Shown: piece after piece, positions 36,854 to 57,538 of the stretch
Layout of the letters: each line of letters begins with the position of its first letter
How positions within the stretch are numbered: the stretch's first letter is position 1
NCBI GenBank assembly: GCA_951406725.2
Contig: OX597823.1
Span: 44,888,001 to 44,952,000, forward strand
DNA: 64,000 nt
Origin: Octopus vulgaris
Taxonomy: Eukaryota
Reading direction: 5' to 3'
The notes under the pieces: model-generated
The model's input: only the letters and a program-made list of their open reading frames with translations
The model's database searches: none
What the model was told of the DNA's origin: nothing
Program-made: the position numbers and the translations under genes

Positions 36854-37229
36854 TTGGAGATAGGTTAAAGTAAATAACAAATTGAACAGTAGATGTGCAT
36901 CAGGAGGAAAAGAGATGCTATCAGACAAACAAGTGATATAAGTGGAGGAGAAATAATGGTTTTAATGAATAAACAGGCAAATGGACAGATGGACTGAAGA
37001 TAGACAAGTAGATGAACTGAAGATAGACAGGCAAACAGACAGATGTTCAGGCAGATTAACTAGCATACTGATGAAGCAAGCAATGGCCAGAAGGACAGAA
37101 AGAGAAAGATGGACAGACTGATAGTTAGGCAGATAACCTAACAGAGGGAACTAATGGACACTCTGAACTACCAACAAACATAAGTGGACAGCTGAAAAAG
37201 GAAGCTGTGTGTGTGTATGAATATGTATA

Positions 37230-38082
37230 TAAGAGAGGGTACCCAAAAGAAACTGGTATTTTGCAGTGTTATTTTATTCACTTAGTTTTACATGTTGACA
37301 TTTTTATTGACTTCAAAGTATTCTCTATTTGAAGCAATGCTTCGGCTCAGATGCATTTACCACTGTTTGAAGCAGTGCTAGAGATCTTGGAAAGTGATAC
37401 CTTTTAATGCCGCCATGGTTTTTTTCCTTCACCTTTTCCACATCTGCAAATTCCATAGCACCAGCTTTCATCACCATTGATGACCTTCGAAAATGCATTC
37501 AATCATGACTGCTTTTGATCTTCCATGAGCAAGCAAGGCGCAAATTTTGCTACAACTCTTTTCATTCACAATTCCTCACTCAACATTCATTAGCAGGAGC
37601 TCCAGGACACACCAATCATATCAACAAGTTTGTTTCAGTCCTCCAAGATCAGTTCATGAATTTTCATGATGTTTTCATTCATTCAGGAGATCGCCGGTGA
37701 CCCTGAACATGGTTGGTCTTCAAGCAACAAGTGACCATTCCTGAAGTGTGAAAACCACTCACAAATTTGTGCTTCGTTCATGGCAGTGTCCTTGTAATCT
37801 GAAATATGACAACTGTCTCGGCCTTCATTTTCTCTAGCAGAAAACAGAATTCCACAGAAGCATGCTGTTCCTTCATTTCAGCCATCACAAAAATTGATGA
37901 ATAGGAAAGAAGCACTGTAAAACAATGATGCACTATGTAGCAGTATGACCTCACCCGATGCCGCTGGTCGGCAGACTGCAGTCTGAGGGTTGCATTAAGT
38001 GGCTTCTAGCAGTAGAAGCCCAAACTACAATGGGCTTGTCCCACAGAGAATGATTCTAGTTATTTTTGGATACCTCCTCATA
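37230..38082. mobile_element. Internally deleted Tc1/mariner-like element with degenerate TIRs
   Basis: Left gagggtacccaaaagaaactgg and right ctagttatttttggatacctcctc form an imperfect inverted repeat, in TA-rich flanks. Confidence 0.55.
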
Positions 38083-39469
38083 TATATATATATACATATG
38101 TGTGTGTATGTGTATAAATTAATGTATGTATTTATACAGACATGCTGATATATATAATAAAAATCTTTTTTTATTTCATTTTCTTTGTTTATTCCCAAAA
38201 TTCTTGTAAAGCAACCAATTGAATTTGAGACGTATAATTGAAGAAAAGTTGGGTTTCATACAATATATTGCATACTTTTGAAGCAGACAATCATTTCAAT
38301 GTAGTCAGTTAGAAAATTATAGGCAAAGATAGAACAGATCGAATTATCTAGTGAAGGATTATGTATGTGAAGAAGCTATTGTGATCTAATATTATAGGAC
38401 CATTTCTAGTGTGATGCTGATTCTATGATATTTACAGATAAACCTTTGTTGAAAACAATTTTCCACAACTGCTGCCTATTACTAAATTTAGTAATAACAA
38501 GCAGCACACCCACGAGGATTATTCTTGGAAACAACTACCACAACAATAAACTGTCATTAAGGAATAACATTGCACAATCATTCACACAATGATACAAACA
38601 TACACCCACACTCGAGAGAGACTTTGAATATAGTCTCTCTGATGCAATTGTTTGCGATAACAGCATAGATTTCTTCAAACTGAAAGCACTATTCAATGGC
38701 AAACATCAACACTGCCATACAAACAAGAAAGGGAAGGACAAAAGAGATACAAAATATCAAGTAGCCAAAAATGATATTCCCAATGTTTATTTAGATAGTA
38801 ATTGTATCAAGGCACATTACAAACCTTATACAGATGGTTTAGCAAAAACCTTACAAACAGAACAAGTCAATATTATACAGTTCATAGCCTATAGTACTTC
38901 CAAAGTATTTTGAGAGGGAAAGAGAGATTATATATTTGTATGATTTTAATCAAAATTCACTGCACTACATGTGCTATTCTTAGTTGTAAATTTACAGCAT
39001 GAGTAAACATCTATTCACTACATTTCAATATTGACCACAACTTACACTATATTTAGATCTAAAAACTACCCTCTCTCTCTCTATACACACATACATACGC
39101 ATGTGTATACACATAAACACTATGTTTAGGTTTAAAAACACAGCCTATATGATACCTAGATAATACCAAATAACCCTAAATTCAAATAAAAATAAACAAT
39201 TTTGATAGAGTTCGTTCTAAAACCATGTTAAATGCTGTTTCATGGGCCTCAAACCATGGATAGGATCCTTGTCTAATGGTAATCTCCACCTTGGATAGCT
39301 TGGCTATCCTTCAATATTCAACAAAGAATCTTGTTACCAATAAGGACCCCAATAGTCTACTGTCTCACCAACAGTCGCTTCTTACAGTGTAATCCTGACT
39401 GACAATGGTAACTTTACTTTGTGTATCAAAAAGAGTCTTGTCCTTTTCCTTTGGGCGATTGCTTTAAAA

Positions 39470-54729: not shown

Positions 54730-54826
54730 TATATATATATATATATATATATATATATAGAGAGAGAGAGAGAGACTATATATATATATATATATATATA
54801 TATATATATATATATATATATATATA
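54730..54826. repeat. (TA)n(GA)n(TA)n microsatellite
   Basis: Read directly. Other microsatellites at 7471-7494, 44599-44637 (CA)n, 54084-54125 and 58308-58349. Confidence 0.9.
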
Positions 54827-55228
54827 GGTGCAGGAGTGCCTGTGTGGTATGTAGCCTGCTTACTAACTACATGGTTTTGGGTTCAGTCCCACTGCCTGGT
54901 GCCTTGGGAAAGCGTCTTCTACTATAACCTCGAGCTGACCAAAGCCTTGTAAGAGGATTTGGTAGACAGAAACTGAAAGAAGCCCATCGTATATACATAT
55001 ATGTGTGTGTGTGTGTGTGTGTGTGTGTGTGTGTGTGCATGTGTTTGTCACCCCACCATTGCTTGAAAACCAATGCGGGTGTGTTTATGTCCACGTAAGT
55101 TAGTGATTCGGCAAAGAGACCAAAAGGGAAAGTACTAGGCTTACAAAGAATAAGCCATGGGGTCGATTTGCTCGACTAAAGGCAGTGCTCCAGCATGGCC
55201 ACAGTCAAATGACTGAAACAAATAAAGG
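54827..55228 (+). mobile_element. SINE family A, full length with (TG)n core
   Basis: Reverse complement of 3410-3813. Confidence 0.85.
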
Positions 55229-57538
55229 AATATATATATATCAAATATGTATATATATATATATAAACATATATATATATATATATATATATAAAATATA
55301 TATATAATATATCATCATTGTTTAACATCTGTTTTCCATGCTGGCATCAGTTGGACGGTTTGACTGGAGACTGACAAGCCAGGAGGCTACGCTAGGCTCT
55401 TATCTGATCTGGGAATGTTTCTGCAGCTGGATGCCCTTCCTAAAGCCAACCGCTCCAAGAGTGTAGTGGGGGCTTTTTACATGCCACCGGCATGGGAGGC
55501 AGTCAAGTCTTTGGTTGGCCCAAGGCTACAGAAGAAAACACATGCTCAAGGTGCCACACAATGCAACTGAAACCATAACCATGTGGTTGGGAAGCAAACT
55601 TCTTACCACACCACTACACCTTCGTTACATTTGCTTCATTGCTGGTGCCACGTAAAAAAGCACAGGTGCTGGTGCAAAGTAAAAAGCAGCCAGTACACTT
55701 TGTAAAGTGGTTGGCATTAGGAAGGACATCCAGCCTAGAAACTATGCCAAAACATACAAGTGGAGCCTGGTGCAGTTCGCCAGCTTGCTAGCTCCTGTCA
55801 ACCTGTCCAACCCATGCCAGCATGGAAAATGGAGTGAATCGCATTTATGTTCTTTACTTGTTTATTTGCAACAGATAGGGGTCCAGGTTCTATTTCTAAT
55901 TGTTTTGTGACTGCCAAATATTCCTGCTACTACATCCATATACATATGTATATGGATGCAGCTACATTCATCATCATCATCATCATTTAACATCCACTCT
56001 CCATGCCAGCATGGGTCAGACGGTTTCACTGGAACTGATGAACCAGAGAGCTGCACCAGGTCCTGGTCTGATTTGGTATGTTTTCTACAGCAGGATACCC
56101 TTCATAGCGCCAACCCCTCCAGGCATGTAATGGCACCATCGATGACCATAACTACGATACACAAGTGCCATTTACATGGCACCTTCAACAACCATGATTA
56201 CAATGCATGGGTGTCATTTACATGGCACTGGCAACAAACAATTATGACTATGATTCACGGGTGCCATTTATATGGCACATTCATGCTCTTGTTACTGGCT
56301 TGTACATGTGCCTTGTGTGTGCTTCATCATCATCGTTTAATGCCCGCTTTCTATGGATGATTTGACTGAGGACTGGCGAACCAGATGGCTGCACCAGGCT
56401 CCAATTTGATCTGGCAGAGTTTCTACAGCTGGATGCCCTTCCTAATGCCAACCACTCCGAGAGTGTAGTGGGTGCTTTTACGTGCCACCACCAGTCATGC
56501 GGTACTGGCAACGGTCACGCACAAATGGTATTTTTTACATGCCACCTGCACAGGAGCCAGTCCAGAGGCACTGGCAATGACCTCGCTCAAATGTCTTTTC
56601 ATGTGCCAGTAAGGCAATATATGTATATGAACATTCACTTTGTATCCAAGTATGTGAACATCCTGTTGTGTTTTAATTATTTCTGTTCACTTTGCCCTTC
56701 CCCTACTTCTAGTCCCTTTCATTTTTCAAAGCTCATCATGCCTCTTTCCTACTACTGCCAACCCCTTTTCAATAAACTTGCTTCTTGCAACTAACTTATG
56801 CCACTCCTTCCCTTATGGAGAGAGTGAAACAGCGTAATAATGGGTGAAGACTTGTTCATAAACTTTATAAGTTCCTTATTTAGGAGATCTGAATCATGTC
56901 TGTGAATGTGTATCAGTTTCCCTGGTTTATACACAATACTCTTAGACAGGTCACAAATGTACTTTGTAAAGTATAGTAGCTGTTTAAAGATAAAGTAATT
57001 TCCAGCCTTGATGAGGAGATCTAACATTTGAGAAACAGCAAGGCCTATATTCTATTGTAAGCTTGAGGCTTTCAGTTGTGTGGTGTTTGAGTTAGGAGAG
57101 TGTAAGTTTGCAAACTGGTTTCCTTAATAAGTGTAGTGAGTGTTTTTTTTTTTTTCTGTTCTCTTGATGGTAGTTATGTTGCCATATCCTGCTTATAAGA
57201 AAGAAAAGTATGGTTGGTTAGAGATCAGATAGGAAGAGGGAGAAAATTGAGGAAATAACACTAGGTTAATAGAATGTAGGTCAGAGAGAGTTCCAATGCT
57301 ACAGTATGTGAGTTTGTTTAGGTGTTTTGTTGGACAAATATATGGAAAGAGTTGTGTATAAAAGTGCATCTTTATTATGTGGCTATATAAACATACAATT
57401 AAATTATGGGTCTAGCTGCAGGAAGTATAACATGATACAAAGGCTGAAAGAATAAAGAAATGAAATGCTCAGTACTATATGTGCATGTGTTATATACTGA
57501 TAAAATGGTTTCAAAATCAGTTTACAGACAAAGGATAT

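Follow-up and report, generated by a model that had tools for sequence, protein, structure and literature searches.

Intron 2 of the Octopus vulgaris syntaxin-6 gene is, with high confidence, removed as one piece of 20,685 nt that begins with AT and ends with AA (36854..57538, minus strand); the minor (U12) spliceosome is the likely agent of removal, and the likely origin is an ancestral AT-AC intron in which a C-to-A change of the last base was tolerated. Positions are those of the window, the whole 64,000-nt stretch of octopus DNA that was analysed. The assignment as U12-type is based upon motifs and orthology, while the intron ends are defined by transcript contigs. The intron is a known rare type in a new gene copy and involves no new mechanism.

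Gene structure of octopus syntaxin-6

The peptide encoded by exon 2 was identical (100% over 56 aa) to the Octopus syntaxin-6 protein P0001 and also matched the solved N-terminal domains of syntaxin-6 and syntaxin-10. P0001 contains PF09177 (E 2.5e-34) and PF05739, in line with the N-terminal domain, SNARE domain and C-terminal anchor expected of the syntaxin-6/10 family. Exons 2-8 were placed in the window by tblastn at 85-100%, all on the minus strand. Exon 2 (57539..57708, 170 nt) codes for EVQKAV...DLEETI plus one base and closes with GAA ACG ATA G at 57539, its last base opening a Gly codon (phase 1). Exon 3 (36759..36853, 95 nt) opens with GT ATT GTG GAG at 36853 and is followed by a GTAAGT donor. 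Exons 4-8 lie at about 31640-31578, 27430-27311, 24071-23965, 22602-22508 and 19422-19346 (span 19346..31640), with boundaries read from the sequence, and the introns between them are GT-AG. Exon 1 is upstream of exon 2 and outside the window, at C10:45056127-45056161 of the 2.8-Gb genome (G000), and intron 1 measures 110,418 nt. Exon 2 matched once in this genome, so a retrocopy cannot account for the joining of exons 2 and 3.

Transcript and genomic evidence for the AT-AA ends

Four runs were compared over 36650-36930: X11 (study P6), X15 (P8), X19 (P9) and X5. Each of the three transcript-like runs, from three separate studies, contained one spliced contig in which 57539 was joined exactly to 36853, the join proposed in the sequence-only reading, thereby defining by RNA the end of exon 2 at 57539 and the AT donor at 57538. 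The contigs match 36758/9-36853 and continue into the end of exon 2 in reverse complement, with 30/30 letters of that end matching in X11, 30/30 in X15 and 29/30 in X19. The join was read from the contig letters past the exon 3 match, of which X11 has just 30; the X19 contig has a depth of 2.6 and three differences. X19 is the only spliced run on record as RNA, and X11 and X15, which are not so recorded, were taken as RNA-like because both also skip intron 3. A further run guessed to be RNA, X8, covers introns over 19000-38900 as DNA would and was left out as RNA evidence.

Use of the AG that overlaps the terminal AA one base downstream (AA/G; 36853..36854, minus strand) would extend the contig match to 36854. 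Since the match stops at 36853 in all three contigs, the acceptor used is AA (36854..36855, minus strand). No other junction and no exon between exons 2 and 3 was present in the three spliced contigs, and a second contig at the acceptor, of AG or GT-AG form, was found in 0/3 transcript-like runs; as assembled contigs drop rare isoforms, these counts describe the main form, and rare forms could be missed.

The genomic bases were verified in X5, a DNA run that carries another organism label and is not marked as a possible source. A single 714-nt contig (depth 27) spans 36650-36930 and differs from the window by one change, at 36861, while the AA at 36855-36854 is kept. The terminal A at 36854 is therefore not an artefact of assembly, nor is it confined to one animal. 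Neither of the two outcomes that the sequence-only reading named as refuting was thus obtained.

Splice-site motifs and reading frame

At its RNA-defined first base (57538) the intron reads ATATCCTTTG, which fits RTATCCTT, and the U12-type 5' splice site ATATCCTTT (57530..57538, minus strand) is complementary to the 5' arms of the U11 and U6atac genes of the same genome. Upstream of exon 3 is TTTACTTTAACC, with CTTTAAC at 36870-36864 followed by TATCTCCAA; exon 3 is immediately preceded by TTTACTTTAACCTATCTCCAA, such that the intron end can be written CTTTAAC-10 nt-AA. The putative branch-point sequence TACTTTAAC (36864..36872, minus strand) resembles TTCCTTAAC with two mismatches and has adenosines at -13 and -12, within the spacing of about 11-13 nt to the 3' end typical of U12 introns. 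The human MED23 branch sequence is TGCTTTAAC. The probability of RTATCCTY at a given base is 8.8e-5 and that of CYTTAAC within 10 offsets 1.7e-3, and the two motifs are far beyond chance. Two U12-like donors inside the intron, at 56098 and 54046, were rejected: both are inside repeat hits, and one RTATCCTY occurs where about 1.8 are expected by chance.

With the donor at 57538, acceptors that keep the frame open occur every third base, and among the AN dinucleotides past the branch motif only the AA at 36855-36854 is in frame. Early stops result from the AC at 36865-36864 and from the AG at 36854-36853, the latter reaching a stop 23 codons on, inside exon 3. The proposal that only AA keeps the frame thus holds for the AT donor among AN dinucleotides, but not more widely: a cryptic U2-type donor, GTAAAC at +14 (57520..57525, minus strand), is in frame with no acceptor but the AG at 36854-36853, and this pair also preserves the frame and adds four residues. 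Frame alone does not force AA, and the transcript contigs decide; use of neither the AG nor the cryptic donor was seen in them.

The same intron in other lineages

According to the part of Lin et al. (PMC2831892) drawn on here, STX6 intron 2 and Drosophila Syx6 intron 1 are U12 introns of the AT-AC type, and STX6 intron 2 switched to GT-AG in the fish examined. In human, STX6 (2,593 nt) and STX10 (134 nt) both carry AT_AC introns at the same ETI codon (PMC8280824, 12 of its 13 supplement files), and retention of both introns goes up on CENATAC loss in the portion of that study cited. These records bear out the suggestion that vertebrate STX6/STX10 have a minor intron at this site, as well as the view that the octopus intron is ancestral. 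As far as these sources go, the octopus intron shares with human STX6/STX10 and fly Syx6 the gene family, the phase-1 site after the ETI codons, the ATATCCT donor and a short branch-to-end spacing. It differs from all three in ending AA rather than AC, and from the human introns in length (20,685 nt versus 2,593 and 134 nt); its branch site is also different (TACTTTAAC versus TACCTTGAC and ACCCTTGAC).

A metagenome scan yielded 40 loci, comprising 18 spliced or intronless loci (L016-L033, uninformative on intron ends; two without a junction-motif match), one more unmatched locus and 21 genomic loci; the three unmatched loci (L024, L025 and L055; 3/40) were excluded. The ATAT donor was present in 21/21 genomic orthologue loci with the motif, so that human, fly (in the source cited above) and all of these loci have a U12-type donor or intron at the orthologous position. 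Exon 3 was missing from 8/21, and 3 of the remaining 13 were dropped as duplicates, leaving 10 distinct introns of 385-973 nt. Read from DNA and frame only, eight end in AC, one in AT and one in AG. In exon 2 the loci are 75-90% alike, and they probably represent one related invertebrate group. No cephalopod orthologue ending AC was seen among the orthologues compared. The occurrence of AC, AT and AG ends among orthologues suggests that the last base of the STX6 intron is labile and drifts, and the octopus AA most likely arose from an ancestral AC by a C-to-A change of this base, which would also have given rise to the overlapping AG one base on.

Minor spliceosome and choice of the AA end

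Genes for the minor spliceosome scored over the cut-off in the octopus genome (U12, 125 bits; U11, 94.5; U6atac, 96.9; CCDC84/CENATAC exons, 42.3). The U11 and U6atac 5' arms pair with the intron 2 donor, and the computed pairing is not distinctive: that of the U12 arm with the branch region was equalled by 29% of 4,132 intron 25-mers, and that of the U11 arm by 5.6% of 4,134 control words. [quoted passage not shown] In the proposed course of events, U11/U12 would bind ATATCCTTT as donor and TACTTTAAC as branch site, U6atac would then take the place of U11 at the donor, and the second step would use the AA end, which lies 12-13 nt away from the branch adenosines.

A review gives 11-13 nt as the optimum branch-to-end distance and, in the sections used, describes AT-AN as allowed, AT-AG as seemingly disfavoured and U12 3' site choice as error-prone (PMC3584512). 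A 5' A can be spliced to any 3' base, with AC preferred, in the part of PMC4176328 cited. AA may be taken in the second step for these two reasons, namely the tolerance of a 5' A for any 3' base and the disfavour of AT-AG. A product spliced at the AG would be out of frame and a probable target of nonsense-mediated decay. The AG end follows the branch motif by 11 nt, the spacing of 8/10 orthologues, and the AA end by 10 nt; as the AG sits at the spacing that most orthologues use, distance alone does not explain the choice of AA. The idea that the 3' site is set by branch distance is thus consistent with adenosines at -13 and -12 but does not single out AA, and a preference among the dinucleotides, or the loss of frameshifted AG transcripts through decay, would have to contribute.

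Intron length and transposon content

The sequence-only reading described a very long intron grown through transposon insertion. In absolute terms the length stands, but in context it is unremarkable, with intron 1 five times as long. Transposon relics are present within intron 2, including a mariner-type transposase (39714..40148, plus strand; PF01359, E 3.6e-15) and a broken reverse transcriptase, likely of a non-LTR retroelement (47547..49003, plus strand; PF00078 in two frames, E 1.4e-10 and 3e-9; repeat hit). However, the repeat share of intron 2 was 25%, compared to 9-50% in introns 3-7, 0.00 in the 6.3 kb of intron 1 within the window, and a median of 40% (0.12-0.60) in 20 random 10-kb genome pieces, all shares being lower bounds obtained with a 400-kb genome sample as library. 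Exceptional transposon-driven growth was therefore rejected: the share is not above that of the genome or the sister introns, and no particular cause has to be sought for the length. U12 intron length tracks genome size in the passages cited from PMC7367187 and PMC10639083, and the size of intron 2 probably just reflects a 2.8-Gb, repeat-rich genome. Human A-type minor introns of similar order are found in FAM227B (about 32 kb) and XPO4 (about 15.7 kb, both from coordinates); these share the U12 A-type donor and end in AC, whereas the octopus intron ends in AA.

Annotation of the junction

The ETIGIVE junction produced by AT-AA splicing is present in the RefSeq models of O. bimaculoides and O. 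sinensis, an Argonauta model and a Logan protein. Within the octopod cluster, 5/6 members read ETIGIVE; the exception, P0124 (CAI9729035.1), has DILCL in place of G, which is the product of the GT at +14 and the AG on the window and is attributed to gene predictors forced to GT-AG. Among 136 homologues, G/S/C/T-IVE is present in 79 and absent from 57; 54 of the latter have D/N-I-L/P after ETI, which by its sequence appears to be read-through of the AT donor. Mis-modelled junctions, read-through or cryptic donors are thus common at this intron among homologues. The expectation that standard annotation would fail here was borne out by P0124 and by 54/136 homologues, but not by RefSeq, which is correct for two Octopus species. 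The value of the octopus intron is mostly that of a clean example backed by RNA and of a correction to annotation, as GT-AG-only gene finders put DILCL into syntaxin-6 here.

Alternative interpretations

Selection of the weak AA end and the length as a rate-limiting control on syntaxin-6 output, by analogy with the general support for such control in A-type introns, would be an unlikely explanation. Different orthologues end in different bases (AC, AT, AG, AA), as expected under drift, U12 intron length scales with genome size (in the part of PMC7367187 cited), and Larue and Roy argue for mostly neutral evolution of minor introns.

A quite unlikely possibility is that the C-to-A change created a three-way switch, in which AA would give the normal product, AG a frameshifted, decay-bound product, and AG with the GT at +14 a major-spliceosome isoform with four extra residues. 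If true, the extra residues would fall in the N-terminal helical domain, and a minor intron would have been caught one mutation from conversion to the major type, possibly under tissue control. A twintron reading, in which the major spliceosome would also pair the GT at +14 and the AG at 36854-36853, giving an in-frame DILCL isoform at a biologically relevant level, is very unlikely. The pair is in frame, the public P0124 model carries the junction, human STX6 and STX10 use alternative donors under impaired minor splicing (AD flags in the supplement files of PMC8280824 drawn on), and the fly genes prospero and dUrp offer precedents. Against this, 0/3 transcript-like runs had a second contig at the acceptor, 5/6 octopod cluster members read ETIGIVE, and P0124 is explained by predictors forced to GT-AG.

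A-to-I editing is abundant in coleoid cephalopods, and could in principle turn the ends into GT and/or AG in the pre-mRNA, such that the spliceosome would meet a canonical intron. In human, GT-AA ends edited to GT-AG and U12 AT-AG ends edited to GT-AG have been reported (PMC4176328, in the part cited). For intron 2 this is highly improbable, and editing rescue was rejected as no duplex partner was evident: the strongest duplex computed for the 41-nt acceptor region within 3 kb (-21.6 kcal/mol) was weaker than 13/14 random intronic controls, and of the 68 inverted repeats in 33800-40000 the 25 longest all lie clear of the acceptor. Furthermore, human and plant AT-AA introns splice without known editing as far as the cited sources report, and a literature search on editing rescue of such an intron returned no matching paper. 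A sequencing error, assembly error or private allele masking a true AC end, as found in 8/10 distinct orthologues and in both human paralogues per the supplement above, is of negligible probability and largely refuted by the identical bases in the independent X5 DNA.

Comparison with known introns

Among non-canonical minor introns, AT-AA is described as the commonest subtype of both animals and plants in the parts of PMC10639083 and PMC1557818 cited, the former giving 823 animal introns (1.117%). In a literature search, no paper was found naming an AT-AA STX6 intron or the octopus case; both Octopus species are included in the survey of Larue and Roy, so the intron may already stand in their database. 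With the octopus intron, one ancient intron position is represented by AC, AA, AT and AG ends, in addition to GT-AG in some fish, a compact natural set for studying minor-spliceosome 3' site choice and the intermediates of subtype switching. Furthermore, the AA/G junction provides a ready system for the choice between AA and AG one base apart.

The U12/U2 twintrons of Drosophila prospero and dUrp (PMC3584512, PMC2831892, as far as cited) contain a nested in-frame GT-AG pair, which is also present in the octopus sequence; unlike in these twintrons, use of the octopus pair was not observed, with only the U12 join in three contigs. Closer parallels are the minor introns of human RASGRP4, MSH3, ABHD18 and PIGB, which are AT-AA like that of octopus but are in other genes and another phylum (PMC1557818, PMC8280824 and PMC10639083, in the parts drawn on). 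In human ABHD18 the AA is followed by an exonic G (…TTTTCAA/GATGAC), as in octopus, and the overlapping AG is therefore not unique to octopus. For MSH3, the human intron is AT-AA and its mouse counterpart AT-AC (PMC1557818, in the section cited), the same switch as proposed for octopus syntaxin-6.

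Minor-spliceosome snRNA loci

In the octopus genome searched, at least 43 dispersed copies of U6atac scored above the Rfam cut-off among 46 candidates, whereas U11 and U12 were represented by five and two copies, respectively. The dispersed U6atac copies are likely retrocopies or repeat-borne copies, since the three compared from the DNA (C19:63674484, C14:25173889 and C11:54262225) were approximately 95% alike, all ended in a T run, had no upstream flank in common, and in two of the three cases continued into one and the same repeat.

Introns of syntaxin-6 and its orthologues

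Intron 1 of octopus syntaxin-6 follows a 35-nt coding exon and is a GT-AG intron of 110,418 nt, occupying 57709-64000 of the window and extending beyond it to C10:45056126. The portion within the window contained two near-identical segments with the same open frames (approximately 60898-60185 and 59061-58402). Lying about 1.8 kb from each other, these are either the product of local duplication or an assembly repeat.

The amino acid whose codon is interrupted by intron 2 was Gly in the octopod cluster (P0001) and Ser in the 92%-identical P0002 cluster, and therefore the final base of the exon, next to the AT donor, differs as well. At the opposite end of this intron, a contig from a DNA run of a second organism label carried an A to T change on the gene strand at 36861, between the branch motif and the terminal AA, both of which were unaltered.

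Among invertebrate STX6 orthologues, as read from genomic DNA, the intron after exon 2 has AT-AG ends at locus L053 (donor ATATTCTT) and AT-AT ends at L050. These introns may be intermediates in subtype switching.
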